Assembly: GCF_000143415.4 (NCBI RefSeq)
Contig: NW_003314405.1
Coordinates: 144,282 to 208,281 of the forward strand
DNA length: 64,000 nt
Direction: 5' to 3'
Origin: Selaginella moellendorffii
Taxonomy: Eukaryota; Plantae; Lycopodiophyta
Of the stretch, positions 1-22,700 are shown piece after piece. Both the position numbers and the translations under genes were made by a program. Below the pieces are notes generated by a model. It was not told the origin of the DNA. It worked only from the letters and a program-made list of their open reading frames with translations, and did not search any database. How positions within the stretch are numbered: the first letter of the stretch is position 1; every line of letters starts with the position of its first letter.

Positions 1-836
1 GGAAGTCCAAGACTAGAGTGAACACGGACCGACAAGCGGGGTAGCTTGGTGAAGTGTTCAAGAGCCGGCTCTAGTTCCCTCGGGAGATCGACTGGCCGAT
101 GCTCCCAGTCCAAGTGTGGGTGGCACTACCTACTTGGATACCTGGTGTGGCTCAATGGAACCTCGCTCTAAGCCCATGGCTAGAGCACCCAAAGACAGAA
201 GGCGAGGAGAGTACTCACGAGGCCCACGTAGGGCCACGGTGTTTCGAAATGTTGCCCCAAAGTCCCAGACTGTGGAAAGGAAGAGGAGTAGCCCTCTAGT
301 GTGGTGATAAGGGACACAGTCACACCGTGAGGAAGTCCCAGAGGACAGTTGGACTTAGTGGTCAGGCCTGTGGGCCTTGATCCAGTGGCAATGTTGGTGA
401 ACGTGGCCATGGACAGGAAGGGACTTGGTGGGGACCAGAAAGGAGATATTGGGGAAGGCTATTCCCCATGTCTGCAGGCATTTTGAGGATGCTATGGAGT
501 GGATCTGGGATAGCCACTCATGGATGGATGGCCTAGTCTTTGAGAGATGGGATTGTAATGCAGGTGGTGTTGAACCACCGGGGTGACCAAGGTGAATGGG
601 CATGGCTTTAGCGTAACAGGCCGATATGTTGGTGGTACCTCGGGGTGCCGGTCATAGGATCGGACACGTGGAGCACTTGGACCAAGTGCAAAGGTGGAGT
701 GGCATGAATGCCATTCTCGGGGCTAATAAGCCCCAAGTCCTAACTGGGACTTATGGAGGTTGTGAATGAGACTCCTCCAAGTGGTTGGAGGTGCGGTTAA
801 GTGACTAAAGTAAAATGGAAAAATTAGTTGTTTACA
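1..836 (+). repeat. 5' LTR of family A element (partial)
   Basis: Colinear with 13206-14041; ends in CA and is followed by the PBS. Confidence 0.9.
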
Positions 837-839
837 ACT

Positions 840-851
840 TGGTATCGGAGC
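840..851 (+). promoter_or_regulatory. Primer binding site (initiator tRNA-Met type)
   Basis: TGGTATCGGAGC 3 nt after the LTR end; identical to the PBS of the nested chromovirus. Confidence 0.85.
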
Positions 852-3319
852 TGTTCCTTAGTCTGACTTTTATTGGTGCTCAAGTATATCACCACTAGTG
901 TTAGCATCGGAAGGTCCGAGGAGTGGGCCTATCCTTGAGGAGTAGCAGGTCGGGAATACATGGCTCTCCATTACAGTTCATGTGTGAACTTGTAGACAAG
1001 GTGGTGGATAGAAAAGGGCCAATAATGGAACGACTTTGGGATCTTGGGAACAGTGCAAGGTTTTCCTCATTGAGTTGAGGAAGTGATCCAGATGAGCGTT
1101 TGACTCAACAAACTGGCTAACGTAGTTGTGGTAAACAACTATAGTTGGGATCACGGGAAAGATGTAGACTCCAAAACAATAAAGGAGTCACAAGATTACC
1201 CTCATATAGTTGAGGCTAGTGCTCATAACTTTGAGACCAGAATTGATGACCATGGGAGGTCAAATACAGAAGAGGACACAAGTCCTTGAAATGATAGCCG
1301 GGGCTACCTCTAATAAATGCTAGAACAACCCAAAGAGTTGGGGGTGTACTCAGAGGATGAGTTGGTATTCTCATCACATGGACAAGTGGTCCTAAGGGGA
1401 AAAGGTTGCCCCAAGAGAACAAATCAAGTGTCTGAGTAACACTTGCAAAGATGGTCCTTGTGAGTAGGACCTGAATACAAGAAGTTGTATTTTAGCGAGT
1501 TGGCACCTCGAAGACTAAGACCTCGCAGGTCGTTGGATTAACAAAGTCTAAAATGTTGGATGACTCAAGTGGAGTCAGAGAATGGTCCTAAAGGATTGGT
1601 TGAAGCATTTGGACTGAGGTGTATGGTGCCCCATAAGGTATGGGGAGGATCATAAGATCCAAGTATGAGAACAGTAGGTATCTCATAAATGGCAGAATGT
1701 ACCATGCTAAAGTTGTGGGAAAGATGTTCCCAGAAGAAAGCAACTTTGGCCCAGAGTTGGGTGCAAACACTATAGTGCGGTGCTAACAGATAGTTAGCAT
1801 GAGGAATAACTATATTAGTCTTAGCAAAGACCTAAACACTAATAAGTAGTGTCATAAGGATAGGCTCGTGGGGCCAATGGTGTGGAAACACCAAATGTGC
1901 CAAGGTGTGATACCTTGAGGTTATGTTAGTGGGTTCATAAGAACCCCTTGCCAAGGGAATCCCAACGGAAATGGGAATGATATAGCCTAAGCTGGAAGGC
2001 ATGTGGTAGAGCGTGGTGACCAAAACAATGATGGAAGTGTGGAAGCACTAGCAATGAGTTGTAGGACTTGACAACTATGAGGCAACTAAGCAAAAAGTGC
2101 AAGATAATTGGTTAAACTGGTAGAAGGTAACTACCCAAGACTTCTTAATGGCATAAGGAAGTTAGATATACTTTTATAAGGGATAAATTGCTTAGGCTGC
2201 GAAATAGTAAGTCGATGTCGTAAAAAGGAATGCTCATTGTCAAAGAAGCCATCATTTGGGACACCTAGACACTCTAGAACACCAGAAGGTGGTGTTTGAG
2301 GTCGCGAGGGCAATAGATAAGGCCCAAGGGACTAAGTCCCTAGCGAATGATGGATAGAAGGTGCTATCCAAATGTCCAAGGTTGCGGAGACAGGAGAAGA
2401 TTGTCTACCTGAATTGGACAAAGCCAAAAATGGAATTTTGGCAAGGTTAGTGATGGGCATGTAAGGGCCCATAAGCAACAACGTTAATCCAGATGTGTGG
2501 AATTATAAGGTGAGCATACCTGGATTGAGGAACCACTCCCTAGGCTATCTGGTCGGTTCATCCCTAAGAATACTTGCTAAGGCATGATAGAAAGTGCAAA
2601 GCTATCCTCCTAGTCTGGAGGAGAATGACCGAAGGAAAGGTGTGAAGCCAAAAGCAAGTAGTAAGGGGATAGAATCGAACCATAGGAATTGACAGGCATG
2701 ACCAAGGTTAGTTGTGCCAGCTGGGAGTGGAGAATCAAGTGGGGGCTCGAGGGTGTTGTTGCTAGTAACCATGATGCCATGGAGAGTCTAAAATATGGAA
2801 TTGTCCATATTAGACTATATGGCAACTATAAAGCTTGCGAAAAGAGAGGCCTTAGCAAGTTAAGGGATAGAGTTCCTTCAAGGTTCCCAAAGACGATTCT
2901 AGGTAGCTTAGTACCTAGAAAGGCCAAGTGTAAATGGTTCATGGAACGCACGAAACCAGAGTGGCGCAGCAGAAGCGTGGTTTTGAAGCTTGCCATGAGG
3001 CAAGGCTATCAAGGTTAGGGAAGTAATTCCCAAGTGTTCAAAGAAAGGGCTTTGAACGAAAGTCGATGGTCAAGGACTTTCACGCTTATGCAGGAACCAT
3101 GTTACGGTGGTCGGAGGACTTGCCAAGTGAGATTGGCAAGTCGGGGGAACAAATACCCTAGTTGAAGGTGATAACTTAAAAAAGGGTGGGCCATGGGGCC
3201 AAGCATGGAGGAGTCCATGCATGATCACAGATGTGTCAAGTGAAAGGACTTGGCAGTGTGGAGGAACTAGGTTCCTAAGCTGTGATCTATAGTGCACTTT
3301 AAATAAAAGTTGGTGCACC

Positions 3320-3540
3320 GGCGTGGGGAGTCACGCCAGGCATCCTGGGTGATGCCGTCCGTAGATGCATATACGGAGGTTGAGTTCGAGTCCCGACCCT
3401 CTAGTGCTTGGGTTCGAGTCCCAACTCACTAGGGCGTGGTGATGGTTTGGAATATGAAGACACTCATATTTCGGTGGTCATGGACTCTCAATGGGGAGAC
3501 TAGTTTGGGCACACCGCCAAGCGAGGGATGCCTCAGAGTC
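3320..3540 (+). ncRNA. Putative structured cis-acting RNA element (multi-hairpin, two T-loop mimics) in the family A internal region
   Basis: Homologous to the reverse complement of 5600-5850, with compensatory stem changes. Loops include GGAG, TTCGAGT (twice) and GACA. Confidence 0.6.
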
Positions 3541-4389
3541 GTGATGCACAGTTAGATTGCTTAGTGTGAAAGTTCGGCATATCTAACTTGAATGCTTTGG
3601 TGCAAGTGGCACCAAGGACGTGGTGTGCCTTCGGGTATCGAAAGTTACCTGTCGACAGTGAGTGAGATGAGGACACCTAATCTCAATTGCTATGAACCCT
3701 TGGCCATAAGGGCTGGCTTGGGTGCACCACCAAGTGTGGGGGATGCCCCCGAGGTTATGGTCAACAACTTGAAGGTCTAGAAGACCAAATACCTCTTGGC
3801 AACTCTGTTAAGGTGCCAATGTGAGATCACTAGGTGATCTTATGGCCAAATAAGGACAAGGTCCTTGGTTGGCTAAGGAATGAAGTTCCTGGTTCAAAAT
3901 GTTGAATTGAACTATTTAAGATGGTGTGGCTTGGTCAAGATGACCAAGTGGGAAGAGCACGTAAGGGAAATAAGCTGTGTCCGTGCGATGGCATAGTGAG
4001 TCCGAGGAAAGTAGTCTTTATAAGAGACCCATGGGAGGGTCACGAAGTTGGGCCGTGGATAGAGCCCATAGCAGAAGATGCTAAAGAGACGTACTAGGGG
4101 TGAACATCCTCCGGACTTGGCAAAGAAGAGTCTTTGCTATGGAACCGAAAGGATACCTCAAAAATGGAGGTAGTGATCCTATGCTGCTGGGTGCAACAAT
4201 CAAGGATAGGAGCAAAAGACTAGTGGCTAAGTAAAGAGCCATGGGAATCATGGGAAAGAATCCAAATGGCAAAGTTAGGCCAAGAACACTAAAGTGTGGG
4301 GTGCTAACGGATTGTGGGAAAAGCAATGTGTTCCCAAGGATGGATTCCCAATTGCTTCGATTTGGCAAAAGCGGAAGCTCCAAGGGTGG

Positions 4390-5536
4390 TGTAAGCCACA
4401 AATTTTTCTTTTCTAATTTGCCAGCTTACCTCGTCTATCCGTCCAACACTGCCTTGGCTTTTGCTAAGTTCCCTCGCCAAGGTTCTCGCCTATGGTACCA
4501 GCTCCTACTTGGTTTCAGCTACTCACTGCACGAGCAATGGAGTGTTAGCCATCCTTCCACGGATTCCCAAATCACTCCCAATCCCCCTCCCCGGGTTAGA
4601 CTGGACTAAGGTTCGGCTACACTCCCCACAAGCACAAGCAGCCAAGCACACCAAGCTTCCAGGTTCCTAACATCCCTTGGTACCACAAGACTTGATCATG
4701 GGACCCTCTAAATCCCAAGTCTTGAGTGCAACACTTGCTTCGGGACGTCGGGGCGAAACACCGTGGCCTAGCGGCCCGGTATGGGTACCTCTCGCCCCCC
4801 ACTTCCATCCCGAAGGAAGGCCCAAGCCCCTAGGAAGGGCGAGGACCAATGAGCCGCATGGTACTCAAGTGGGGCACCACTCCACATGAGCCGGGAGCAC
4901 CGCAATCGGTTTCCCTTTCGGGAGTGGGAGCTGCTCTTGAGCACTTCCTCGGATGGCCCCTCCGGCACCAGCCAAGTCCATGCTCACTCCCACCCAAGGC
5001 CCCTCGGTCCCAGTCCCAACCTCAAGTCAGTTTGGAAGCCCAACTGGAGAGTCCCTTCAAAACTGGTTCCTGGACCTCACTATCCCTACTATACTTTTGG
5101 AACCCCCTGCAGCCCCCCCCCCCTGGGGGACGCACGCTTTGGGCTTTCACCCCTTGACCCGTATTAGTATTTGGACTTAGTCTCTGGCTCGATCTCGGAT
5201 CCGATTTCGGATCCGACTTCGGATTCGGTCTCGGACTCGATCGCGGACTCGATCTCGGACCCGATCTCGGGCCCGACCTCGGACTCGATTTCGGACTCGG
5301 TCTCGGACCCGATTTCGGATCTCGGACTCCGTCTCGAACTCGGTCTCGAACTCGGACTCGAACTCGGTCCCCGAGTCGGTCTCGGACTCGATTCCGGACT
5401 CTATCTCGAACTCGGTCCTAGAGTCGGTCTTGGACTCGATCTTTGACTTGGTCCCATCCGATGAACTCTTTGTCATTTTGGTCATGCTTTCGGGGTTCCT
5501 TTAGCCTACGACACCTCGGCGAGCTGGTTCCTTACA
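4390..5536 (-). repeat. 3' LTR of chromovirus
   Basis: Near-identical to 10772-11918; contains a GAGTCC/GAGACC-type hexamer array at ~5185-5445. Confidence 0.95.
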
Positions 5537-5548
5537 ACTCCACCACCC
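5537..5548 (-). promoter_or_regulatory. Polypurine tract of chromovirus
   Basis: GGGTGGTGGAGT directly adjacent to the 3' LTR. Confidence 0.85.
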
Positions 5549-5599
5549 ATAGAAGAAGTTCGATGCCCACATCGAACGTCTCGTTTTATCCTACGACTT

Positions 5600-5850
5600 G
5601 TTGACCATGTCTCCGGGGGCATCCCCCCACTTAGCGGTGTGCCTAAGTTAGCCTCCCCGGCCAAGAGCTCATGACAACGGAATATAGGTGTCCCTATACT
5701 CCCCACCTCACCACGCCCTAGTATAGGGTCGGGACTTGAACCCAGCCTTGCTTTACTAGGGGGTTGGGGCTCGAACCCAACCTCCGTAGAATACGTTTAT
5801 GGATTCGACATCCCCGCAGGGAGTCGGGCGTAGCTCCCTACGCCTGGTCG
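5600..5850 (-). ncRNA. Putative structured RNA element in the chromovirus 3' UTR
   Basis: Hairpins GGCGTAG-GGAG-CTACGCC, GGTTGGG-TTCGAGC-CCCAACC, CCCTAGTA...TACTAGGG enclosing GGG-TTCAAGT-CCC, and GGAGTATAGG-GACA-CCTATATTCC. Conserved in family A. Confidence 0.6.
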
Positions 5851-5938
5851 ACCTAGCTAACCCATGCTAATTAGCTTACCTTCGGCGCGCCTTCGGGTCC
5901 CAACATATGCCATTGCTCAACTTCTCAAATTGATACTT

Positions 5939-8675
5939 TTAATTGAACTTTGCATAAGTACATAGAGTTCTGCCATGCAGAAATTCCTCCACTAGATCTC
6001 GCGCGTTCGCTAGGTTCTCCTCCGGTTCCCATGTTGCTTCGCAGTGTGGAAATCCTTTCCACTTCACATGGAACTCTCTCACCTCGCGTCCTTGTCGCTT
6101 GCTCTTGCGCGCATTGAGGATGGCCTCGACTTCGTATTCCTCTTCCCCTTGGATAACCTCGGGTAGAGGTCTTACTTGGTCCTTGCGAAGCGGATCCTCA
6201 AAGTACGGCTTGAGTAAGTTCACATGGAACACTGGGTGCATCTTCCCCATCTCTCGAGGAAGTCGGAGTCGGTAAGCCACTTTACCGATTCGTGCCTCAA
6301 TCTCGTAAGGCCCCGCGAACCTGCTTAAGGAACTCAAGATCGATTCATTTACAGGAATACATGCATCTTTACCTTTGGGTCAACTTTCGGCTGATCCCAC
6401 TTGGTAGCCTGAGGTTCTTGGTGTTCAGCCACACCTTCTCCCCAGCTTGGAACTCCACATCTCGACGCTTTTGGTTCGCGTACTTAGTTTGCCTTTGTTG
6501 AGCCCGTTCCAAGGAATCCCTCACTAGATTCCAAATGTTGAGTCTTTCCGCCGTGAATGCCTCCACTGCGGGTAACTCTCCATGATACTCGGCCACACCG
6601 AGTTCCACAGGACCTTCAATAGCTCGCCCATTGATGACTTCCCATGGACTCACCCCGATGCTCGAATGTGGTGAGTTGTTATAACACATTTCCGCAAGTC
6701 CCAAATGACTTACCCAGTCGGTCTGGTCTCCCGAGACATAGCATCGCAAATAATCCTCCAGCTGCCTATTCACCCTTTCCGTTTGTCCGTCTGTCAAGAA
6801 GTGTTAGTGCCATCAATCTTGACTTAATACCCATTACCTGTCTGTGGGTGATAGGCTGTGCTGAATTTCAACTTGGTGCGATACTGTTCTAGGAGTGTCC
6901 TCCAGAACCTACTAGTGAAGATCTTATCTCGATCTGAGATAATCTCTTCCGGCCTTCCCCGCACTCGAACCATTTGTTCGAAGAACAGCTTCGCCACACC
7001 TTCCGCATCCACGTCCGTTGTGGTGGGTATGAAATGTGCCATCTTTGAAAATCGGTCCACCACCACGAATATCGCATCGAACCCCTCGCTTGGGGGTAGT
7101 CCCGTGATGAAGTCCATCGTGAGACATTTCCACGGACGATCTGGAATGGGGATGCTTTGCAACAAGCCCCCACTAGCCTTCGTCACGGCTTTGATTTGCT
7201 GACATATTGGGCATGTCTTTACATAGTCTTGGACGTCCTTAGCCATATCTGGCCAATGGTACTTCCTTTTGAGTAAGCCCATCGTCTTGGGCACTCCGCC
7301 GTGTCCCGCGAGAGGTCCGTCATGACACTCTTCCAAGGCTACCTTCCTTAGTTCCCCTTCTGGGACATACACCCTCGTTTGCTTGTAATAAATGAGTCCG
7401 TTGCGTTCCGCATAGCCCGTTTTCTCTTCCGTTGGCAGCTCACCTCTCTGGTGAGCTTCCCGCGCCTCCAGATTCCTCAACAACACTTCTTGTGCTAGAC
7501 CATCGTTCTCATATGCTGTCCGCACATCGTCCCAGAAGGTTGCTGTTGCGCTGGAGATCGCCAACCTCAAGCTCGCTTTTCGACTTAGCGCATCTGCCAC
7601 GATGTTGCTCTTCCCAGGCTTGTACAGAATCTCGCAATCAAACTCGGCCAAGGCATTGGCCCACCGACCTTGTTTCCCTCTCAGGTCGGGTTGTGACAAG
7701 AAGTGTTTCGTTGCCACATTGTCCGTGTAAACCTTGAAGTGTCTCCCAAGGTAGTGTCGCCACTCCTTGAGCGCCTTGACCACCGCAAACAATTCCTTCT
7801 CGTGGGCAGGCCACTTCCGTTGAGCCTTGTCCAGCTTCTTCGAGAAGAACGCTACTGGATGGTTGTCTTGCTTCAAAACTGCGCCCAACGCAAAGTCCGA
7901 AGCATCGGTGTCTACCTCAAAGTCCTTACCAAAGTCTGGTAATGCCAACACCGGAGCCTTCCTCAACTTCCCTTTGAGGTGGACGAATGCCGCCTCGCAT
8001 TCCGCTGTCCATACCATCTTCCCTTTTCCTGTTTGATCCGTTAAGGGCAGGGCTACTCTCGAATAGTGTCTGATAAACTTTCGATAGTAGTTGCATAGCC
8101 CCAGGAATGCCCTCAACTCATGTACATTCGATGGTCGCTCCCATTCCTGGATCGCTTGGACCTTCTCCGGGTCCACTTTGAGCCCGTCCTGGCCCACCAC
8201 ATGCCCGAGAAACTTTACCTCTCGTTGAGCAAAGTCACATTTGCTCTCTTTAGCATACAGCTTGTGTTCCCTTAGTTTCTCAAACACCTTCGCCAAGTGT
8301 TCGGCATGCTCCTCTAGCGTCTCGCTATAGATCAGGATGTCGTCAATATAGACGACCACGAAGTGATCCAGATAGGGTACAAAGATGTGGTTCATCAACG
8401 CCGAAAACGTTGCCGGCGCATTGCACAGCCCAAAGGGCATCACCAAAAACTCAAAGCTCCCATACCTCGTTCGACAGGTTGTCTTCTCGACATCTTCCTC
8501 AGCTACCCTGATCTGGTAGTATCCTGACCTTAGGTCAATCCTCGAGAAGTATTTTGCCTTTCCCAACCTATCGAACAGGTCCTCAATCCTTGGCAAAGGG
8601 TACTTGTTCTTTTTGGTATACTTGTTGAGCAACCGGTAGTCTATGCACATGCGCATAGATCCATCTTTCTTTTTT
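5939..8675 (-). CDS. pol: Pol: RT, RNase H, integrase, GPY and chromodomain; three exons (approx. 8675-6838, 6790-6373, 6320-5939)
   Basis: Motifs [34 protein letters not shown] zinc finger and [13 protein letters not shown]. Splicing restores [12 protein letters not shown] and KLTQRFAGPY. Chromodomain EYEVEAIL...FHVKWKGF...TWEPEENL. Confidence 0.92.
6321..6372 (-). other. Predicted spliceosomal intron 2 in integrase (52 nt)
   Basis: CCAAAG|GTAAAG...TTAAGCAG|GTTCGC; AT-rich; removal gives T-Q-R-F-A-G-P-Y in frame. Confidence 0.85.
6791..6837 (-). other. Predicted spliceosomal intron 1 in integrase (47 nt)
   Basis: GACAG|GTAATG...CACTAAC...TTGACAG|ACGGA with a CTAAC branch point; removal gives H-P-Q-T-D-G-Q-T-E. 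Confidence 0.88.
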
Positions 8676-10712
8676 CACGAATAGCACCGGCGCCCCATAC
8701 GGCGACTTGCTCAACCTAACATACCCTTTGTCCACCAACTCCTCTAGTTGGCTCTTGAGCTCCTTGAGTTCTTTTTCGTTCAATCGATAGGGTGGACGAA
8801 CCACCGCCTCAGCACCCTCGACCAGCTCAATCTTATGTTCAATCGGTCGTGCGGGGGGCAACCCCGCCGGTAGCTCCTCCGGCATGGTATCTTGGAATTG
8901 GTCCAGCACCTGCTGGATCACTAAAGGTACTTCTTCCGTTCTTGTCTTTTTGTCACTCTTCACCGAGAGTAAGCACAAAAAGGCTGCTTTAGTTCCTTTA
9001 GTGAGTTGTCCTCTCGTGGACACCAGGTTTAAGCATGACTCTTTGGCCTTGCTTTGCCCTACCTTTAGATCCTGGGCCTCCACCCTAGATCTTCTTCCTT
9101 GGGCATTCGCCAATACCACAAGGTTCCTACCTTGTCCATGCAGGGCTACCACGAACCGATTAAACCAATCCATTCCGAAGATCACTTCAAATCCCGCCAT
9201 GTCCAAGACGGTGAAATCCATGTCCACTTTCCATGTCCCCACTTTGACTCTCGCTTGTCGAAGTACCTCATCGGTGCTTTGGCTACCCTGAACAAACTCT
9301 ATAGTCCTTGGTTCGCCTAGCCGCTGCACCATTAGTCCGGCTTGCCGGACTATGTCTGCAGCCACAAAATTATCCGAAGCACCCGTGTCAATAAGGATCT
9401 TAACAAAGCTACCTCCGAGCTTCCCTCGGAGGGCTAGTAGATGTCGCGAACGACTCTCTACCAAAGTTGCTCGTGTAATGAGTAACTTTGAGTTAGGGAC
9501 TGGATCACATACCTCAGTTTGGACTTCACCCGACTTGATGGCCATATTGGCTCTGGCCTTCTTCGGGTAGGGACATTCCCTTGAGAAGTGTCCCGCTTCG
9601 CCGCAGTTGTAGCATACGTTGTTTCCCACGCTGCTATACGACTTGACCTTCTTATCCGTGGGTTTGTCTTTTTTCGCTTGACTCCCCCACGTACTCGCTC
9701 GCTGGCCACCGGATTTGCCTTTCCGGAACCCCGAGGACTCATTCTTAGAGAAACTCTTTTTGAATTTCCCCTTGCTATACGTTCCCCTTGGTTTGGCCCC
9801 TTTGCTAAATGTGGATCCCGACCCCGTCGTGTTCCCCTTTCGCAGGTTATCGTTGAAATGCACCTTGATGGCCGCATCCAACGCTTCCTTGTAGTTGGTC
9901 GGGTTCCACCGCATCACCTCATCGCGAGCCCAGGTTTGCAAACCTGATATGAAGGCATGGAACGCATCCATATCCCCCATGTCCGTGACCAGTATCCTCT
10001 TTGCCATGAACCCATTCACATATTCCTGGATGGTTCCAGTCTGCTTTAGCCTACTCAGCTCATCTCTCAGATGCAGAGTGGCATTCGGAGGAACGTATGT
10101 TGCGCAGATCCTCGCCTTCATCATGTCCCAAGTGGCCACTGGTCCTTCGTTGGCCTCCGTCGTTCTCCACCAAGACTTGGCATTATCTGCCAAGTATGGT
10201 TTTGCACATGGGACCTTCTCCGAGCTCGGTAATCGCAACGCTCGGAAGTAGTCCTCCATATCGTAAAACCAATCCTCCACCACTTTATAGTCGTTCACTC
10301 CCTTGAAGACCGGTGGGGGCTTTGGTTTGTACTTGGGAACTGCCTGAGGGACTGATTCTACTTCGGTCTGTTCGACCTTGTCTGGTTTTGCCTCAGTCCC
10401 GGCCGAAAGATCCGCACCTTCTGCGCTGCCAGCATCCGCAGTCTTTTTCTTTTTCTTCCGCCTCTCGTCACGCTTTAGCTTGCGTACGAGAGTTTCCAGC
10501 AGGGCATTGGTCTGTGCCAACTGTCCTTCTAGCACGTCCAATCGAGCCTTGGACGACCGAACCTCGCCACCGGACTCCTGTTTGGAAGTTTCCTCACTAG
10601 AGTCCTCCTCATGCAAGGATTCCTCATCCATAGCCTCTTGTTCGACCGGAGGCTCCAGCTCCGGTGGAGGTTCCGTCTCCGCCTGGGTTCGCTTATGCCC
10701 TGCCCTTGCCAT
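8583..10712 (-). CDS. gag: Gag (retrotrans_gag, CCHC zinc knuckle) plus aspartic protease and start of RT; out of frame with pol by one extra A at ~8670-8675
   Basis: [14 protein letters not shown] knuckle, LIDTGAS protease motif and [12 protein letters not shown]. Deleting one A restores [15 protein letters not shown]. Confidence 0.93.
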
Positions 10713-10756
10713 CTCCCAGCAATCCGCCTCTATCCTTCGCTAGAACTGAGATAAAG

Positions 10757-10768
10757 GCTCCGATACCA
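10757..10768 (-). promoter_or_regulatory. Primer binding site of chromovirus (tRNA-iMet type)
   Basis: TGGTATCGGAGC 3 nt inside the 5' LTR boundary. Confidence 0.88.
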
Positions 10769-10771
10769 AAT

Positions 10772-11918
10772 TGTAAGCCACAAATTTTTCTTTTCCAATT
10801 TGCCAGCTTACCTCGTCTATCCGTCCAACACTGCCTTGGCTTTTGCTAAGTTCCCTCGCCAAGGTTCTCGCCTATGGTACCAGCTCCTACTTGGTTTCAG
10901 CTACTCACTGCACGAGCAATGGAGTGTTAGCCATCCTTCCACGGATTCCCAAATCACTCCCAATCCCCCTCCCCGGGTTAGACTGGACTAAGGTTCGGCT
11001 ACACTCCCCACAAGCATAAGCAGCCAAGCACACCAAGCTTCCAGGTTCCTAACATCCCTTGGTACCACAAGACTTGATCATGGGACCCTCTAAATCCCAA
11101 GTCTTGAGTGCAACACTTGCTTCGGGACGTCGGGGCGAAACACCGTGGCCTAGCGGCCCGGTATGGGTACCTCTCGCCCCCCACTTCCATCCCGAAGGAA
11201 GGCCCAAGCCCCTAGGAAGGGCGAGGACCAATGAGCCGCATGGTACTCAAGTGGGGCACCACTCCACATGAGCCGGGAGCACCGCAATCGGTTTCCCTTT
11301 CGGGAGTGGGAGCTGCTCTTGAGCACTTCCTCGGATGGCCCCTCCGGCACCAGCCAAGTCCATGCTCACTCCCACCCAAGGCCCCTCGGTCCCAGTCCCA
11401 ACCTCAAGTCAGTTTGGAAGCCCAACTGGAGAGTCCCTTCAAAACTGGTTCCTGGACCTCACTATCCCTACTATACTTTTGGAACCCCCTGCAGCCCCCC
11501 CCCCCTGGGGGACGCACGCTTTGGGCTTTCACCCCTTGACCCGTATTAGTATTTGGACTTAGTCTCTGGCTCGATCTCGGATCCGATTTCGGATCCGACT
11601 TCGGATTCGGTCTCGGACTCGATCGCGGACTCGATCTCGGACCCGATCTCGGGCCCGACCTCGGACTCGATTTCGGACTCGGTCTCGGACCCGATTTCGG
11701 ATCTCGGACTCCGTCTCGAACTCGGTCTCGAACTCGGACTCGAACTCGGTCCCCGAGTCGGTCTCGGACTCGATTCCGGACTCTATCTCGAACTCGGTCC
11801 TAGAGTCGGTCTTGGACTCGATCTTTGACTTGGTCCCATCCGATGAACTCTTTGTCATTTTGGTCATGCTTTCGGGGTTCCTTTAGCCTACGACACCTCG
11901 GCGAGCTGGTTCCTTACA
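10772..11918 (-). repeat. 5' LTR of chromovirus
   Basis: Near-identical to 4390-5536. Confidence 0.95.
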
Positions 11919-12469
11919 GGTGGGAGCGGTAAGGTAGCCAAATGATAGCGCCGTGGACAGCCCTAGCATAAAATATGATAACTGGAACTTAGTGCCAAAG
12001 GTGGCATGAAATCGAAAAGAGGATGATGGTGCCCTCAAGTAGAGAACTTTCTAGGATGAGGAAGTGGAGTTGCACAATATGGGCAATGCAAGGTGTTGAA
12101 GACACCTAAGAAACTGACTTCGAGAAGTCAGAAATAATAGAGTTCCAAAGTGCAAGGGTTGTATCAATGGAAATTGAGACTACTCGAGAATAAATAGTGG
12201 GATTGGGTTAGAGAAGGTGTCTCTAACAGGTTTAGCGAGAACTAAACCAATAAAAGGAGAGAACCACCACAAATGGTCGAATGAATCTCTAAGTTGAAGA
12301 GACTATACTCCTTAAAGGATGGGTAAGGCAAGGTGAGCCTTCGGTGTTAAACCATGGATGAATGTTGGCGAGGGGCCAAGGATGCAAAGGGTAATACAAG
12401 CTAATATTACTTTATAAAATAGTTTATCGTTCGATAAGGACATCGAACTTCGTCTATGGGTGGTGGAGT

Positions 12470-14041
12470 TGTGAGACACAAAATCACTAGGCCCCAAAGT
12501 GGAGCTGAAAGGGTGCCACATGGTAGTGGCTGAAGCGAAAGCCAAACGAGCGTAACACGTTTGGACTAAAAGCTCCGACTTGAAAAGGTCAAGAGTGGGA
12601 GTGGAACTCCCAACGAAGTGCTTGAGGAACGAGCACGAAGCGAGCAATAAGCGAGGCTCCAAAAAGGGACCCAAAAGGACCAACACATGACACGTGGAAG
12701 TGTCCGAGATGGACTCGAGTTGGGGTTCGAAGTGGAGTCCGAGACGGAGTCCGAGGTGGACCCGAGATGGACCCGAGGTGGAGTCCGAGATGGAGTCTGA
12801 GATGGACCCAAGATGGAGTCTGAGATGGACCCAACATGGAGTCCGAGATGGACCCGAGATGGAGTCTGAGATGGACCCGACATGGAATCCGAGGGACCCG
12901 AGATGGAGTCCGAAGTCGAGACTGAGACTGGAACCGAGACCGAGACTGAGACCGGGACCGAGGCCGAGGCCGAGACCGAGCCCGAGTCCGAGCCCGAGTC
13001 CGAGCCCGAGTCCGAGTCCGAGTCCGAGTCCGAGTTTGAGTCTAAGAGGGTGAAAGCCCAAAGCGTTCATCTCCTAGACCCTGGGGGGTTTGGTGAGCTC
13101 CAAAAGTATAGTAGGGGGAGGACTGCAGTGGAGCCAGTTTGGCCAGGAACGGCCAGTTTGGCCCAGGAAGGCCGGACCCAGTATTGGGTGATGAGCTGCC
13201 CACTGGGAAGTCCAAGACTAGAGTGAACACGGACCGACAAGCGGGGTAGCTTGGTGAAGTGTTCAAGAGCCGACTCTAGTTCCCTCGAGAGATCGACTGG
13301 CCGATGCTCCCAATCCAAGTGTGGGTGGCACTACCTACTTGGATACCTGGTGTGGCTCAATGGAACCTCACTCTAAGCCCATGGCTAGAGCACCCAAAGG
13401 CAGAAGGCGAGGAGAGTACCCACGAGGCCCGCGTAGGGCCACGGTGTTCCGAAATGTTGCCCCAAAGTCCCAGACTGTGGAAAGGAAGAAGAGTAGTCCT
13501 TTAGTGTGGTGATAAGGGACACAGTCACACCGTGAGGAAGTCCCAGAGGACAGTTGGACTTAGTGATCGGGCCTGTGGGCCTTGATCCAGTGGCAATGTT
13601 GGTGAACGCGGCCATGGACAGGAAGGGACTTGGTGGGGACCGGAAAGGAGATATTGGGGAAGGCTATTCCCCATGTCTGCAGGCATTTTGAGGATGCTAT
13701 GGAGTGGATCTGGGATAGCCACTCATGGATGGATGGCCTAGTCTTTGAGAGACGGGATTGTAATGCAGGTGGTGTTGAACCACCGGGGTGACCAAGGTGA
13801 ATGGGCATGGCTTTAGCGTAACGGGCCGATATGTTGGTGGTACCTCGGGGTGCCGGTCATAGGATCGGACACGTGGAGCACTTGGACCAAGTGCAAAGGT
13901 GGAGTGGCATGAATGCCATTCTCGGGGCTAATAAGCCCCAAGTCCTAACTGAGACTTATGGAGGTTGTGAATGAGACTCCTCCAAGTGGTCGGAGGTGCG
14001 GTTAAGTGACTAAAGTAAAATGGAAAAATTAGTCATTTACA
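12470..14041 (+). repeat. 3' LTR of family A element (1572 bp) with hexamer/12-mer minisatellite at ~12700-13045
   Basis: TG...CA ends, preceded by the PPT, matches 1-836. Confidence 0.9.
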
Positions 14042-14255
14042 ATATAGAGGTGGGGTTCGAGTCTTTAACCCTTTAGTGCTTGAGTTCGAGTCTCAACTGA
14101 CTAGGGCATGGTGATGGTTTGGAATATGAGGACACTCATTTTTGGTGGTATGGACTCTCAATAAAGAAACTAGCTTGGGCACACTGGTAAGTGGGGGATA
14201 TTTTAGAGTCGTAATGCACAATTATATTGCTTAGTGTGAAAGCTTGGCATATCTA
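14042..14255 (+). mobile_element. Fragment of an older family A internal region (structured RNA segment)
   Basis: Diverged match to ~3370-3585. Confidence 0.75.
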
Positions 14256-14810
14256 TTGTTTCATTTTCTCCATTTTTAGATCTTATTCTTGTACTAATAA
14301 TTTTTTTCCAAGGGATTTGAATTGAAAGCTACTTCAACAACATATGGAACTATGAAGATCCATGAGGGTTGCTTTCCTTCCTGTTTGGATCACCTTCTTA
14401 AAGGTGGGCAATTCTCTCAAGAAATTATCAAAAAAGTGCTTTTAACCTTGGCAAGAGTTTAATTACAGTAATAAATGTAGCAAAATCTTTATCTTTATAG
14501 CTTTCTATCATTTCCATGCATGTTGAGGAACAGTGATCATAAAGCGGATGCTATAGGGCTTTGCCTATAGGATAGTGTCGAGCTGGTGCAGATCATGGGC
14601 ATAACTCACCATAAAAAATGTGCATAAAATGAGCTCTTGCATAGCAAAAATGTTTCCTCATCCATTCACAAACTATTGGATTGTAAAATAAACTTCATTT
14701 GTTGAGCCAATGTGATCCAGAGTGCAATTCATGCCATGCACAAATCATGGTTTATGTGGTACTGATGTGGCAAATGGTCACATGTACCTATGGCCTCCCA
14801 AGAACTAAAT

Positions 14811-14813
<3 letters not shown>

Positions 14814-14865
<52 letters not shown>
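14814..14865. repeat. (CT)n microsatellite
   Basis: About 26 CT units. Confidence 0.95.
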
Positions 14866-14866
<1 letters not shown>

Positions 14867-15565
14867 ATGTAGCACTGGATTTTTATATATGACATGCAAA
14901 ACCATGCATGACCATACCAAAACAAAAATCAAAAATCCATTTGTAACTTACAAAAACTTTCCATTTTACATGAAAAGTCTTACATTCACGTACATGTACC
15001 AATCACACATATGGGCACACCTGCCAAACTTGCTGCCACCCAGGTTTGGGAAAGGCCCAGCTTTGTGGAGTGTAAGTTCAGCACAACTGTACTTGAGATC
15101 ACCTTAGAAACCCTTTGATAACAAGAGAACATCCTTCCCGCTAGTGAGGCGTGATGTGACTTTTTTTTTTCCAGTCACAAATTAGGCCTTAAAGCCAACT
15201 TGCAGAGCCCAAGAACCGACATGTAACAGAACTAGAGATCAAACACACCCTATCCTATCTGCTATCACAATTTATAGAGATGAAACAAACTTAGAAGTTC
15301 CAATATGTATACTTGTTGAAAAATTAGATTTAATAAGAATTACAAATAACTACTAGTTTCCAACAAAAAATAAGATTGCCCTACTTCTTTCTTATGGAGT
15401 CAGCCCACACTGTCGACAAATTTTCCTATGGCATGGCTAATACAAGCAAGACTGATGCCAATACAAAGGCCACATATCCCAAACCCCATATCCAACACTC
15501 TATCGTGACAATAGAGACCATCCCTTATTGTGATCCTAACCCCTATATTCTCTATCTTAAAATGT

Positions 15566-18500
15566 AAGGCACCAAGGATGTGGTGAATGAGATGGGGAGA
15601 TTTAGTCTCAATTGCTATGGACCTTTGGTTGGAGATAACTTGGGTGCACCACCAAGTGTGAAGAATGCCCTTAGAGTCATGGTTAACAATTTAAAGATCT
15701 AGAAGACATAATATTTATTGGCAAACCTATTAAGGTGTCAAAATGAGATCACTAAGTGATCCTATGGCTAAATAAGGACAAAATCCTAGTTAGGTTAAGG
15801 AATAAGGTTCATGGTTCAAAGTGTTGATTTGAACTGTTAGTTATTGTGTGAATTGGTTGAAGTGACTAAGTGGAAAGCACAACTAAAGGAAATGAGTTAT
15901 ATCAATATGGTGAATCCAAGAGAAGTAGTCTTTAAGAAAGACTTATGAGAGGGTTACAAAGTTGGGCCATGGATAAAGCCTATAATAGAAATGCTAAAAA
16001 GATTTATTAGAGGTGAACACTCCCTATATTTAGTAAAGCAAATTTTTTGCTATGGAATTGAAAAGATATCTCGAGGATGGAGGTAGTGATCATATGTTAC
16101 TTGATACAACAATCAAAGGATAGGGTGCACACAGCTGTCATCGAGAAATGCCTCAATCACATCACCCCGAAACCACTCCATATAGCAAAAATCATTGATG
16201 TTTGATACTAATGGATTTTGGGAAAAGAAATATGTTTCTAAGGATGGATTCCCAAATACTCCAATTTGGCAAAGGTGAAAGCTCAAAAGGAGAGAGTGAC
16301 AAGAAAGCCAAATGATAGGGCCTTGGATATCCATAGCACAAATTATGGATAAGTGGAATTTAATGGTTAAAGTGGTACAAAATAAAAGAGAAGATGATAG
16401 TGCCCTCAAGCAAAAAACTTCTTAGGATAAAGAAGTGGAGTTTGCATAACATATGTAATGCAAGGTGTCGAAGATATCTAGGAAATTGATTTTGAGAAGT
16501 CAAAATTAAAAATTCTAAAGTGTGATGGTTATGTTTGATAGATGCTGAGACTATTCAGGAATGAATAGTTGGATTGAAATAGAGAAGGTGTCTCTAACAG
16601 GTTTAGCGAGAATTAAACCAAATAAAGGGAGAGAACCACCACTAGTGGTATAATAAGTTTCTAAGTTGAAGAGATTATATTTCTTAGTGTAAGCAACTAA
16701 AGGAAATCACTCGAGAGACGATCCATAAGGGTTTAAATATAAAGAGAAAGGTCCCATGAATAAGAGTGCACCCTCTTTTTCAATCGGTTAAGGGTCTTGG
16801 GATGTTTAGGGTTAAGCGTCCTTGGGTTTAAATAATACTTGGCTGGGTGACCTCCCAAGAAGTCTAAATTCAGGAGTTTACACTTGGATGATGGGCAAGG
16901 CATGGTGAGCCTTCAGTGTCAAACCATTGATGAATATTACTTTGATGCTAAGGACAAAAAGAGTAATATATAATGGTGTTACTTTATAAAATAATTTATT
17001 ATTTGATGAGGACATCAAATTTCGTCTATGGGTGGTGGAGTTGTAAGACACAAATCCCTAAACCCCAGAGTGGAAATAATTTATCGTTTGATGAGGACAT
17101 CAAATTTCGTTCATAGGTGGTGGAGTTGTGAGACACAAACCCTTAAACCCCAGAGTGGAGCAAAAAGGGTAGTGGTCGAACAAGTGTAATATATTTGGAC
17201 TAAAGGCTCTAACTTGGAAAGTCAAGAGTGAGTGGAACTCTGAACAAAGTGCTTAAGAAATGAATTGCTGAATGAGTTTCTAAAAGAGGATATAAGAAGG
17301 ATTGATACATGGCAAGTGTCGTGACACATGGAAGTGTCAGGAACAAGTCCAAAAAGGAGTTCAAGAAAGAGTCTAAGATGGAGTCCGAGATGGACCCAAG
17401 ATGGACCCGAGATGGAGTCTGAGAAGGATTTGAGATGGAGCCTGAAGTCGAGTTTGAGGTCAAGACCAAGACTGAGACTAAGACTGAGACTGAGATTGAG
17501 ACTGAGACCGAGACCGAGACCAAGACCGAAATCGAGATCGAGAACGAGACCAAGTTCGAGACCGAGTCCGAGTCCGAGTCCAATTTTGAGTCCAAAAGCA
17601 AGTCCAAGGGTGAAAGCCCAAAGCATTCATCTCCCAAACCTTGGGGGGTTTGGTGAGTTCCAAAAGTATAATAGGGGGGAGCACTTCAGTGGAGCTAGTT
17701 TGGTTAGGAAAAGCTAGTGTGACCAAGGAAGTTATACCCACGTGTTGGGTGATGATATATCCATTGAGGAGTTTAAGGTTAGAATGAATACAGACAGATA
17801 AGTAGAGTAATTTGGTGAAGTGTTTGAAAATCAACTCTAGCTCCCTCGAGAGATCGAATGGTCAATGCTTCCAATCCAAGTGTGGGTGGCACTATCTACT
17901 TGGATACCTTGCATGGCTCATCAGAACCTCACTCTATCCACATAAGTAAGGCACCTAAGAGTGGAAGGTCGGGGAGTACCCACGAGGCTCGTGTAGGGCC
18001 ACAGTGTTTCAAAATGTTGTCCCAAAGTTTCAGACATGGAAAAGAAGAGGAGTAATCCTCTATATAGTGACCAAAGATATAGTCACATGGTGAGGAAGTC
18101 CCAGAGGTCAGTGGGAATTAGTGGTCGAGCCTTTGGGCTTTGACCTAGTGGTGGTGTTGGTGAGCATGGCCGTGGATGAAAAGGGATTTGATGGGAATGG
18201 AAGATGAGATATTGGGGAAAGGTGTCCCCCATGTTTTTAGGCATCCTAAGGGTGTTAAAGTGTGGTCAAGGGATGACCACTTATGGACAAATGGCTTAGT
18301 CTTTGAAAGACAGGACTATGATGCAGTTGGTCTTGGACTATTGATGTGACAAAAGTGAATGGGCATGGATTTAGCCTAACGGGCTGATATGTTGATAATA
18401 CCTTTGGGTGTTGGTCAGGGGATCGAACACATGGAGCAATTAAACTAAGTGCAAAGGCTGAATGGCATATATGCCATTCACGGGGCTAGCAAGTCCTTAA

Positions 18501-18797
18501 ATCTAGAATAGAACTTATGGAGGTTGTGAGTGAAACTCTTCCAAGTAGTTGAATGTGTAGTTAAGTGATTAAACTAAAATGGAAAATTTAGTCGCTTACA
18601 ACTTGGTGTTGGAGTTATTCCTTAGTCCAACCCTTATTGGTGGGTAAGTATTGGCATTGGAAGGTCCCAGAACTGGGTTTATCCTCAAAGAGTAGCATGT
18701 CGAAAGGGCATAACTCTCCACTTTGGTTCATACGTGAACACGTTAGCAATGTGGTGGATAAAAAAGGGTTATTAAGGGAATAACTTTAGGATTTTAG
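15566..18797 (+). mobile_element. Older degenerate family A copy: 3' internal region, PPT, LTR (~17127-18600), degenerate PBS and start of a further internal region
   Basis: Colinear with 3605-4389, 11924-14041 and 837-1045, with many transitions. It lacks the chromovirus insertion. Confidence 0.85.
16688..16882 (+). mobile_element. Cassandra-like TRIM solo LTR carrying a 5S rRNA internal-promoter-derived segment
   Basis: TGTAAG...TTTACA, 195 bp, TSD CTTAG/CTTGG, absent from the homologous site at ~12311. GTTAAGCGTCCTTGGG...AATAATACTTGGCTGGGTGACCTCCCAAGAAGTC resembles the plant 5S box A-IE-box C region. Confidence 0.75.
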
Positions 18798-19749
18798 TAT
18801 TTCAAGTGTCTTTTTCTTTGATGTGGCTATATTTCATGTTTAGAAGCTTCAACTTTTGGTTCTCTAGTCTGTACAGCCTAGTCTTCTAAAGTTTGCATAA
18901 TAAAAAGTTGCATAAAATTTTAAATGTGAGTTTTGAGGAACAAAAATTCTTTACATGGTCTTTCTTGGAAGAGGACTTGTGCTTCCTCTTCCTCCCATGT
19001 CCATTTCTAGATTTTAGTATCGTCAACTTGAAAAAACAGTATTAGAAAGAATAAAAACATACAAAAATCTTATGATTACATAATTGTGAACTCTAATTTT
19101 ATGTTGGTTTAAAGTTGCCTTGTCAAAAAACTTCTCGTCATAAAATACCTCCAGGAACATTCTCGAGCTTGTAGACGTATGGCTTATTGTCTCCATCCTC
19201 AAGATGCTGCCACTCATCTGCATTACTAAATGCGTTGATGTCTTCCTTGGCTGAGGTGGCTCTGCGTATCACTAAAAAATGCCAAAGATGAGCAACCAAG
19301 TTTTAAACCAAAGACCAAAGAAAAAACAAAGACTTTCACCATTGTGCATGTTTGAAAACAGTAGCAATGGGGGGTACTTGAGCTTCCTATTGAGGATCTT
19401 GATTGACAGCTCTATGCATCTTTAAGTAAATGCCACAAATGAGCAGCCCAATGATCAAAAAAAGCTGAGAAAAAGACTAAAGACCAAAACCCATTGTCTT
19501 TAAATAAAAGCAACCTTCCTATCTATACAACTAAGGATCTTACCCATCTAGATGCCTAAAATGTAGGTTAGATCTTGCAAACAGCCAATCTCTAACTCCT
19601 TTCCAGCATTGCTTTCCTCGCCTTCCAACAAACTCTATGAAATGCCCTCACCCTAAATTGGACTTATCTTTGGCCACTAGACAACTAGAATAAAGTAATA
19701 GTTAATGGTATTTGTTATGATTTTTGGCTATCAAAAAACTTTAGGTCCC

Positions 19750-22700
19750 TGACAGTACTTCAATAGATTTTTAAGTTTTCCAAGTTTTCTCAGCCTTGTG
19801 GACCTCCTAGTGCTAGCAAGAAACTCATCGTCTCCTGAACTTCCTCGTGTAGTTGCTGACCGTTACAAACAGTTGGGCTTCTCATTGTCAAAGTCATTTA
19901 GAATCTATTCAAAAACTCGCTTCAGGTCCTACACATGCTTCTTCACAGTCTACTTTTTGTTTTCATTCATGAAACCCATAGTGGGCAACATGTTATCTAG
20001 AATGCCAATTATACCAAGCAATGCTAGTGTTGATGAGAGGTTTTCAATAAGACTAAATGGCAACCAATGCTTGACCGCCTCAAGGTATGGGAACATTCTA
20101 AAAGCATCTGTAATTCAAAAGCATCAACATATGTAAAACAAAGCTATTCTAAATACCTTTAAAGTCTTTGTTTGCCCTTCTTGTAGTAACAATTCAATAA
20201 TAACTTGATCACCTATTGCACAAGCCACAACTAGGGGTACTCGACCAATGTTATTTATGTTATTAAAATTTGATACTCTAGAAATAAATTCTTTGACCTT
20301 TGCTTTCTAATGCTTTGTGATTGCATGGCATAGCATATCAATCCTTACTTTTACCATTGTCAAGCTGTCCATTCTAAAAAAAGGAATTTAAAAATAAAAG
20401 AAAGAGCAAAAATAGTAATAACAAACCCAAAATCTTCTTGCAGTGAATGCCAAGGAAAATTTGCAATCTAGGATCATGGAAGTACAATCCAAAAAAAGTG
20501 GATGGTGGTGGATGTAGTGGTCAACCTCAATGGTGTGCTTGCCATCCTTGGAAGCTATAAGAATAAAGTACTGCAAAAAGAAACGTATGAAGTAAAACAA
20601 TGTAGAAACAAATGAGTGAAAAACCTTACCTTGGGAATATAATCTTTGCATTTTGTTCAAAGAACAATTAAATCATCCAAAGTTGAGAGCTGCTTAAAAA
20701 TAACTATGGCCTTTACCATGGATGGTATAACTTTGTGGCAATGTTCTTGTCGCGCATGTGACTTCGGGTATCGAAAGTTACCTGTCGACCAGTCCTTACG
20801 GACACTCTTACCTTACTGCCACGATGGCAGGAGGTCGGTATTGCTGGACCCTTTATTAGCCCCTCTTGTGCTAGTGGAGTTAACTGGGCATTTCGAGTGT
20901 ACTTAGACCGGACGAGCATAAGGACGGAATTCCTACGTGTTATTAGCTAAGCATACTTAGCCCGGTAAGGAGTTCCCGTCTCGTTTTGTCTTGCACTTGC
21001 TAGTGACAAGAACCCTCGCGTATTGAGATTGGTCCCTCAATATCGCTGGATGATAGCTTTCCGTGTCTGCCAAACACCCTCGCTATCATACCCTTTGTGT
21101 TAGTCTCATTCCGGTCCCAGAAGCTATTTATGGAAAGTGTCCAGATTTGCTCATTTGGCATATCTACGGAATGTAGAGATCGGTCTGAACACAATGGTGT
21201 TCGTCCCGTGTCCAAATTTGCATTCTAGCGCCATTCCATATTTAGTAAGTTTCAAGCTTGTCCCAGAGACTAACTCCTGGTACTAAGGGTAGGCTTGGGG
21301 TGAAAGCCCAAAGCGTGTGTTCCTCAAGGGGGGGGGGGCTATGGGGGGTTCCAAATGTATAGTAGGGATAGGGGGTAGGTCGGGCATGGCCGACCAACCT
21401 GAGGCATAGTTTAGCTCCCGCTTGCGTGCCTGTCCTTGTTCTGCGTCCGGCTTGGGTCTAAGCCCAAGTTCCATTCCATGCTAGTTGGTGGAGTACCCAT
21501 GTCCTCGCGTTAGGCCACCGGTATGCCGAAATAGCGCCAGACTCCGTTTGGCTCCGTTTTGCATGCTGGTCCTGGCATTGGGATGCTGGTTGCTCCAGGA
21601 CTGTTCCAAGTCGCTCTAGGCTCCTGTCCCTTCGCTCCTTGGGTTTTATGCTCGGGAGTTGCTCCGTGGCTCGGTTCCGTCACTCCTTGGCTTCGTGCTT
21701 GGGAGTTTGGCACCGTTCCTTCGTTCAGTGGCCCAAGGCCCTGAACCTCGGGTTCCTATGGACACGTGGCATGGACACATGGCATGTGACACGTGGCATC
21801 TGTCACGTGGCACAAAGAGGGTTTAGGTTCCGCTTCGTGGTGTTATCCTATGGTAAATCACCATAGGATAAAGGGTCAAAACCACGTGCGCTACATTTGG
21901 TATCAGAGGCTACGTCTCAGCGAGTACTATTCAATGAGATTGGGCAACTAGTCTCGTTGCATACGCAGAGATGAAAACGATGATCCGAGTGGGTACACGT
22001 ATGGGTGCAAAGACTTCGCGTTCGTTCTTTGGGTATGGATTTGGTTACCTTGTTGTACCATATTTTGTGAGCTTGAGCTTGGGCTCACAAGAGGGATTTG
22101 AGATGTTCCGTTCGCATGGGTTTGAGCTTGGGCTCATGAGTGAGGCACATTAGCAACTCAAAGTTACATTTTGAGTTGGCAGGATTAATGTTAGCCTATC
22201 GGTGGTTCCATGAGTTGTTCCAGTGGTTCCATGAGTTGTTCCTTGTACCATGGGTTTAAGTAAACTTTCCCTGGGTTTGCTATGAGTGGCAAATAGGCTG
22301 GTCCGTAGCTGTTTAGCACGGCACTAGTGGATCCTTCCTAGGCGTGGTTACAAGTGGATCAATCAAGACTATAGGGATGAGTCTATTGATTCAAGTAATC
22401 ATTGCCGTGCTCTCTCATAAACTTTTCTTGGATTGGACTGAAGGCAGTGCGAAAGCAAGCTTGAGGTTTAGTCAAAGATAAGACCAAAAAGAGAGTTATC
22501 AGGGACGAAGGATCAAACACGTAAATCATTTTCTCTTCTTGGAGATATGATTTGCAACAAGGTGTTAACTCATTGCTCATGTTCCCATCATGCAATCAAG
22601 AGTCCCTACCTTGATGCATATTGGAAATGATAGTCTTACAAATGGCAAGTTGTGGGATGGATAACGGTGAAGCGTTATACCATTTTGTCTAGGCTTGCTA

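Follow-up and report, generated by a model that had tools for sequence, protein, structure and literature searches.

The window analysed here, a 64,000-nt stretch of the Selaginella moellendorffii genome, contains a Ty3/gypsy chromovirus (element A) that interrupts a non-coding LTR element (element B), together with an older member of the B family (element C) and a second non-coding LTR element (element D). Element A is 7.5 kb long, with LTRs of 1147 bp that are 99.8% identical (10772-11918 and 4390-5536), a GGTGG target site duplication and, on the minus strand, a PBS at 10768-10757 and a PPT at 5548-5538. It encodes Gag with a CCHC knuckle, PR, RT, RH, IN and a group I chromodomain (Pfam Chromo, E 2e-16) that stops at 5939-5941, and its closest protein relatives are approximately 50-55% identical. 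The Gag-Pol ORF, which lacks the chromodomain, spans 3886 nt from ATG to stop and has one frameshift inside, near 8.6 kb, that breaks this copy; two short ORFs follow, the last coding for the group I chromodomain. SM1-Galahad is described as having the same size, a poly-G tract and a tRNA-Met PBS as in element A, LTRs of 1146 bp, a main ORF of 3885 bp, and two short downstream ORFs of which the last holds a group I chromodomain (PMC3350952). Given this agreement in size, LTR, poly-G, PBS and ORFs, we assign element A to SM1-Galahad, a match made to the published description and not by sequence alignment. The accessible text of that paper, supplement text included, takes the short ORFs as separate, does not use the word 'intron', and describes neither a 3' UTR structure nor a non-autonomous partner.

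Two short introns in integrase reinterpret the two extra ORFs reported for SM1-Galahad (Table 1). Both are skipped exactly in two presumed-RNA contigs (X17 and X18, from two runs of one study), while a contig of a third presumed-RNA run spans intron 1 unskipped; genomic contigs keep the letters of both introns, and no skip of either occurs among the 15 DNA joints listed. Raw RNA reads for the element are scarce (9 and 3 of 9.2 million in two runs), a few of them crossing the conserved module described below. The contrast between skipping in presumed-RNA contigs and retention in the genome suggests that the family propagates via intron-retaining RNA and makes its full integrase-chromodomain from spliced RNA. 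An intron-retaining genomic RNA had been a premise of the preliminary description, and it gains support here; the introns are better supported than the RNA module itself. Ogre and EVADE are given as the notable plant exceptions with introns in a 2025 review (PMC12786077). By eye, a further consensus-like donor (AG/GTAAGC) near the end of the 5' LTR of element A and an acceptor-like site, TTATCTCAG, after its PBS (both within 10745-10812, minus strand) suggest a possible intron whose splicing would leave the message without a PBS.

The 5' LTR of element B ends at 836 and is followed by a PBS at 840-851; its 3' LTR (12470-14041) is 97.5% identical to the part of the 5' LTR inside the window. Once element A is discounted, the internal region is approximately 4.1 kb, and no remnants of element A proteins were found in it. 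With more than 4 kb, LTRs, a PBS and a PPT, and without coding remnants, element B fits a LARD-like element (PMC7215508, PMC4350172). LARDs reportedly specify conserved RNA structures, according to the same two sources; the structure in element B differs from these in being present in an autonomous element as well and in carrying T-loop motifs. Elements A and B have their PBS and PPT in common which, together with shared LTR motifs, suggests that B depends on proteins of the A type or family, while a sister family could alternatively be its true partner.

Several further features of these elements were observed. Element B is a mosaic: 33 nt at 3624-3656 (plus strand), located between the first and the second copy of its module, match the beginning of the element D LTR (20757-20789 and 26904-26936) at 97% identity and likely represent a recombination junction between families. 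A 23-nt sense-strand piece at 2957-2979 (plus strand), approximately 330 nt upstream of the B module and not found in element A, resembles the start of initiator tRNA-Met (its 5' part): compared by eye with the human sequence given in PMC13625232, 22 of the 23 positions agree. Element D (20748-28058, plus strand; LTRs 98.6% identical, internal region of approximately 5 kb) has a 112-nt LTR motif in common with element A at 82% identity and does not contain the module; it differs from A and B in PBS tail, PPT and LTR ends, which suggests another partner for it. In element C, an insertion of approximately 190 bp bounded by TG..CA (16689-16880, plus strand), with a weak 5S rRNA match (E 2.9), looks like a decayed Cassandra-type solo LTR. 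The LTRs of A and the B family hold arrays of short GAGTCC-type repeats (5180-5450, 11560-11835, 12700-13045 and 17360-17600), some of which are box B-like (5364, 11746). Elsewhere in the window, a 4.4-kb duplication (36270-40647 vs 44473-48893, 92.7%) carries long minus-strand ORFs (37771-39654, 45912-47435 and 48643-50022) whose C-terminal parts are kinase-like by eye; a Pfam scan of two of the three gave no match.

Table 1. Coordinates of the elements, module copies, hairpins and candidate RNA-processing sites in the window.
Feature	Position	Strand	Details
Element A, Ty3/gypsy chromovirus	4390..11918	-	Window self-comparison, Pfam, sequence inspection
Element B, non-coding LTR element interrupted by element A	1..14041	+	Window self-comparison
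Intron 1 in integrase, 47 nt, GT..AG	6791..6837	-	Contains the stop codon terminating the unspliced ORF
Intron 2 in integrase, 52 nt, GT..AG	6321..6372	-	Joins to SH3-chromodomain exon
ATTAAA over chromodomain stop (5943-5938) and consensus-like donor (GT 5879-5878), candidates	5873..5943	-	Sequence only
Module in 3' UTR of element A, approximately nine predicted adjacent hairpins	5612..5858	-	Between chromodomain stop and PPT
Homologous module in element B	3306..3536	+	~1.4 kb upstream of B's PPT, A discounted
Partial second module copy (3' half) in element B	3649..3775	+	Sequence alignment
Older decayed B-family fragment, hairpins 4-9	14042..14255	+	Beyond end of B 3' LTR
3'-half module copy in element C (older B-family)	15573..15691	+	Sequence alignment
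Palindrome, 8 nt, GGTCGACC, element A	5846..5853	-	Predicted paired, not exposed
Palindrome GGTGCACC, homologous site in element B	3312-3319	+	Predicted paired
Hairpin 1, 7 bp, GGAG loop	5827..5844	-	Against B 3320-3337: one double, one G.U change
Hairpins 2 and 3	5783..5825	-	Hand-drawn structure
Hairpin 4, 7-bp stem, T-loop-like loop 1 (5775-5769), box B-like	5762..5782	-	Fold and motif
Hairpin 5, T-loop-like loop 2 (5740-5734) on a long interrupted stem	5716..5761	-	Fold and motif
Hairpin 6, 10 bp, GACA loop	5679..5702	-	Hand-drawn structure
Hairpins 7-9	5615..5667	-	Three double changes against B 3485-3534

The module stands out as an island of similarity between A and B. The minus strand of 5600-5850 had been described as aligning with 3320-3540 in otherwise unrelated surroundings, and the alignment is clear, both locally (5844-5618, minus strand, vs 3320-3532: 72% over 229 nt, E 2e-21) and globally (5612-5858 vs 3309-3532: 172/241 identities, 71%, z 20.9 against shuffles). 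The immediate flanks are at shuffle level with 48-49% identity, at 123/255 (z 0.0) for the 230 nt upstream and 43/87 (z 1.8) for the 81 nt downstream, the latter side leaving approximately 65 nt between the module end and the PPT in element A. Beyond these flanks the surroundings are not wholly unrelated, as a pre-PPT stretch (43/55) and LTR motifs (89/133 in the TATA-like region and 38/62 at the LTR end) are also common to A and B; among flanks and islands, only these are kept comparably to the module. The LTR middle is weakly shared (174/319) and the leader that follows the PBS barely departs from the null (93/187, z 2.3). Islands of like identity at separate places would fit selection since one split better than a late single transfer. 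A further copy reported at 14042-14215 aligns as claimed (3369-3585 vs 14042-14255, 83%), although it belongs to an older fragment past the end of B's 3' LTR. The expectation that the module should be better conserved than its flanks among non-autonomous copies failed on two old B-family copies (132/163 vs 46/53 in the flank, and 86/116 vs flanks of 74-78%); this lack of extra constraint is likely dominated by post-insertion decay, and still does not count as support for the module.

The preliminary description had proposed that compensatory changes maintain the stems. All of the stems it quoted are present, and 7 of 62 hand-drawn pairs have changed on both sides. Two of its details need correction: an A-U/G-C swap in the CCCTAGTA stem lies next to indels, and MAFFT does not align the two bases as a pair; and the pair closing the GACA loop of hairpin 6 is broken (A.C) in the 3449-3472 copy, against which this hairpin otherwise has two double and two G.U changes. 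The closing pair of hairpin 1 has a predicted probability of 0.98 in A and 0.80 in B. Of the three stem mismatches in element A, two lie in hairpin 3, at 5797 and 5800. At both sites the letter that would pair, which element B also has, accounts for 96-99% of the depth in genomic contigs, so that this copy carries rare alleles there; at least 12 genomic contig variants fall inside the module among the variants listed. In the 3378-3398 copy the first T-loop stem contains an A.C mismatch, with a closing-pair probability of 0.33, and the RNAalifold consensus leaves this hairpin out. The palindrome has been kept through two transversions between GGTGCACC and GGTCGACC.

Covariation was assessed on two independent full copies, A and B. 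In the hand-drawn structure, which was made with both sequences in view and so leans to pairing, the 62 pairs divide into 42 unchanged, 8 with a one-sided and 7 with a two-sided change, and 5 that are lost in either A or B; the two-sided count is reached by 12 of 500 shuffles. Blind tests, in which pairs predicted from one copy were scored on the other, yielded 3-7 two-sided changes where 2.5-3.5 were expected (P 0.006-0.46, with 3 of 8 tests under 0.05). For the fraction of pairs kept, P was 0.0001-0.06 in all 8 sense tests and at least 0.08 in each of 10 control blocks. When each copy was folded separately, 36 pairs were shared (5.9 in the null), with 5 two-sided changes against 0.37 (0/300 shuffles). 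In calibration, all 80 shuffles were also exceeded in shared pairs by 3 of the 11 control blocks, and the module had 4 two-sided changes against 0-2 in the 11 blocks. The antisense strand of the module scores about the same, so that sense-strand RNA is not singled out, and the seven stem changes that are two-sided all consist of paired transitions, the type of change most frequent in these repeats (44 of 63 substitutions are transitions). The partial duplicate at 3649-3775 gave no significance in covariation tests. Folding energy was rejected as evidence; the z-scores are -4.07 for module A and -1.73 for module B, and many other windows of both elements match or exceed them. The blind covariation tests are suggestive, not decisive, and a conserved RNA structure in the module is likely but not proven.

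By consensus, a tRNA T-loop has 7 nt (TTCRANY), a G-C closing pair and a stem of approximately 5 bp. Two stems with TTCRAGY loops of 7 nt closed by G-C had been pointed out, and these recur in all three copies (A, B and 14042-14255), with 6 of 6 loops fitting the consensus; each full module copy has two such loops, 28-35 nt apart. The pattern GRGTTCRAGYCYY, itself derived from these very copies, has 6 matches in the window against 0.09 expected. The stems are 4-7 bp for five of the six loops, the sixth having a mismatch under the closing pair. A search of Rfam with positions 1-20000 at E up to 5 returned 5 weak matches, none of them on the module, and ARAGORN found no tRNA.

We consider the module most likely to be a cis-acting structured RNA, and tentatively, at somewhat less than an even chance, a signal by which Gag selects and packages genomic RNA. 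A non-coding LTR element needs LTR ends, a promoter, a PBS, a PPT and a packaging signal; the other islands common to A and B cover the first four and the 5' leader is unconserved, so that the module is left as the candidate packaging signal by elimination. Gag of the A type, which has the CCHC knuckle, would read the module and package the RNAs of both A and its gene-less relative B, and the T-loop hairpins might offer a tRNA-like docking surface, much as box B does in recruitment by the 1a protein of brome mosaic virus. Folding in vivo and purifying selection on the module are both presumed in this proposal. Against it, element D is non-coding and shares an LTR motif but lacks the module, and the retroviral packaging signals treated in PMC7599994 sit in the 5' leader. 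Of the candidate packaging, export or stability role put forward in the preliminary description, the cis-acting structured RNA thus survives as the best reading, on the strength of the A/B island and the highest number of two-sided changes; it is weakened by the position of the module 3' of the introns, by old copies that are no better kept than their flanks, and by a poor analogy to HIV-1 SL3, since GGAG hairpins of at least 5 bp also occur at 10960/4578 and 3210, and replacement of the GGAG loop in HIV-1 had no significant effect on packaging (PMC7599994).

As the module lies downstream of both introns, it would be present on spliced and unspliced RNA alike and cannot alone select the unspliced form; it could discriminate only if spliced RNA ends or splices before reaching it. 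Two candidate sites lie just upstream, the ATTAAA at 5943-5938 and the donor at 5879. A scheme of two RNA fates can be drawn, in which the spliced message, yielding the full integrase-chromodomain, would end or splice at one of these sites, and only the unspliced, intron-retaining RNA would bear the double tRNA-elbow mimic, which host tRNA enzymes might modify and Gag might read for packaging. We regard this scheme as doubtful. Neither site was seen in use, and one contig and one read run through the donor at 5879; in the one study that yielded the spliced contigs, these stop at 5982 and 5992, positions that do not show RNA ends, and no presumed-RNA contig covers 5612-5825. A further candidate intron, with its end at 5844, was discarded because its 36 nt are probably too few.

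A structured signal for host factors, acting in nuclear export or stability of unspliced and of non-coding genomic RNA in the manner of MTE, RTE or CTE, with T-loops recruiting tRNA-handling proteins, is rather unlikely though next in rank. It draws on the same conservation evidence as packaging. Export elements of the MTE, RTE and CTE type are located between pol and the 3' LTR, as the module is, and an intron-retaining RNA has to leave the nucleus, given that the introns are spliced in some RNA and kept in the genome. Exportin-t and exportin-5, however, require free, mature RNA ends, which an internal hairpin does not have; the module has no likeness in sequence or in Rfam (E up to 5) to a known export element, and element B has no known intron to retain. 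The MTE of MusD and the RTE of IAP, both mouse elements, are comparable as structured cis-acting RNAs in LTR retroelements that must move full-length RNA (PMC12786077). They have no evident sequence likeness to the module and, according to that review, use NXF1, on which plants do not rely; T-loops go unmentioned for them in its accessible text.

We give the same low weight to the module being a passive relic, acquired by B through descent or template switching from an A-like ancestor, with hairpins persisting by transitions and inverted-repeat self-correction. The excess of transitions (44/63), the strand symmetry of the tests, the positive control blocks (3/11), the old B copies in which the module is no better kept than flanks, and the mosaic make-up of B, with its element D LTR and tRNA-like pieces, all agree with such an origin. 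It accounts less well for the sharp module edges against shuffle-level flanks, a divergence similar to that of the PPT and LTR islands, the consensus kept in 6 of 6 T-loop-like loops, and two-sided changes exceeding every control block.

More improbable is that the conserved motifs act as DNA, as box B/TFIIIC sites, an insulator, or a remnant of a tRNA-derived Pol III promoter of SINE or Helenus type. At 3411, GGTTCGAGTCC is an exact match to the box B consensus, four further module sites match with one mismatch, a box A-like 11-mer lies at 3311 in element B, box B-like motifs also occur in the LTR repeat arrays (5364, 11746), and S. moellendorffii has a tRNA-bearing TRIM, Helenus-1_SMo (PMC10886601). 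Yet the homologous site in A has no box A-like match, the box B copies are only 28-35 nt apart, TTTT first occurs at 5062 in A and is absent from 3380-4389 in B, ARAGORN and Rfam give no tRNA on the module, and the paired changes in seven other hairpins are left unexplained. Neither a tRNA-like cloverleaf nor a nearby T-run terminator was found at the module, and the restriction of the box A-like match to B together with the lack of a close T-run makes a Pol III promoter unlikely; a lone TFIIIC site may possibly exist, more so given the similar motifs in the LTR arrays. Helenus and Cassandra (TRIMp3) likewise have tRNA-like box B sequence in LTR retroelements, one family being from this species, but in these the short LTRs contain a complete tRNA-like head that includes both boxes A and B (PMC10886601), whereas the module has T-arm hairpins only, internal, doubled and without a conserved box A. 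A derivation of the module from Helenus-1_SMo was rejected, there being no evident likeness by eye. Separately, in a distant chromovirus (L030, 3880-4020, plus strand), a box A-like motif and a T-loop/box B hairpin follow a PPT-like run at a distance of approximately 100 nt; neither tRNA nor Rfam matches were obtained there, and the hairpin is likely inside the LTR, as a Helenus-like tRNA head on a coding element.

Least probable is an aid to reverse transcription, by plus-strand priming, strand transfer or palindrome dimerisation in place of selection by Gag: the module ends close to the PPT in A, its 8-nt palindrome outlasts two transversions and GUGCAC is a known HIV/SIV dimer palindrome (PMC7599994), but in B the PPT is approximately 1.4 kb away, the palindrome is predicted to be paired in both copies, and chance alone would give about one palindrome of 8 nt in every 250 nt. 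Our ranking therefore places packaging first, then export or stability and a passive relic, followed by box B sites in DNA and lastly an aid to reverse transcription.

For the packaging reading, box B of brome mosaic virus is the closest functional precedent for the T-loops, by analogy. It is likewise an internal hairpin with a tRNA T-loop motif on the RNA of a parasite, and the motif is needed for template recruitment by 1a (PMC4083346, PMC5869524). In that plus-strand RNA virus, a single box B per RNA is read by 1a and selects RNA for replication (PMC4083346, PMC5869524), whereas the module has two T-loops in a predicted nine-hairpin array of a retrotransposon, and its role in selection is a proposal. 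HIV-1 psi similarly has a palindrome (SL1) followed by a GGAG-capped hairpin (SL3) (PMC7599994), and the Gag of element A has a CCHC knuckle, as noted above. Psi occupies the 5' leader, 3' of the major splice donor; the module is in the 3' UTR, downstream of introns, with a palindrome outside any loop, a different closing pair, and GGAG loops elsewhere in A and B. The module is thus apparently not a psi of HIV type by position, nor a Pol III head by box A, cloverleaf or terminator, and would work like known cis-acting signals of retroelement and viral RNAs.

Homologues of the module outside the window were found neither in pattern scans, which gave chance matches only, nor in 81 distant Ty3/gypsy loci obtained by an alignment-based search, loci that are remote relatives and have no bearing on the Galadriel clade. 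A scan for the double T-loop pattern gave no match in viral contigs and two in metagenomes, both unrelated on inspection, and a single-protein search of viral contigs returned no locus. A sequence-only model of the module matched none of the 81 loci. Among the 38 of these with at least 300 nt after the integrase end, T-loop hairpins occur within 1.5 kb in 2; one of these hairpins probably belongs to an LTR and the other to a tandem repeat. No description of the module or of these introns was found in the literature covered, most subscription journals and Repbase lying outside its scope.

Packaging signals are poorly known in plant retrotransposons. RNA export has never been directly studied for plant LTR retrotransposons, according to a 2025 review (PMC12786077), and the means by which TRIMs, which are small and non-autonomous, remain linked to their partners are stated not to be known (PMC10886601). 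A bounded module of 230-240 nt in both a coding and a non-coding element offers a direct handle on these two questions. Furthermore, T-loop mimicry for template selection is known in a plant RNA virus, and in a retrotransposon would, if true, be a convergent solution. For a family of SM1-Galahad type, the spliced integrase introns make selective packaging of unspliced RNA a real problem, and the two-fate scheme, were it true, would explain how these introns survive retrotransposition and how a gene-less element may hijack particles by means of one 230-nt module.
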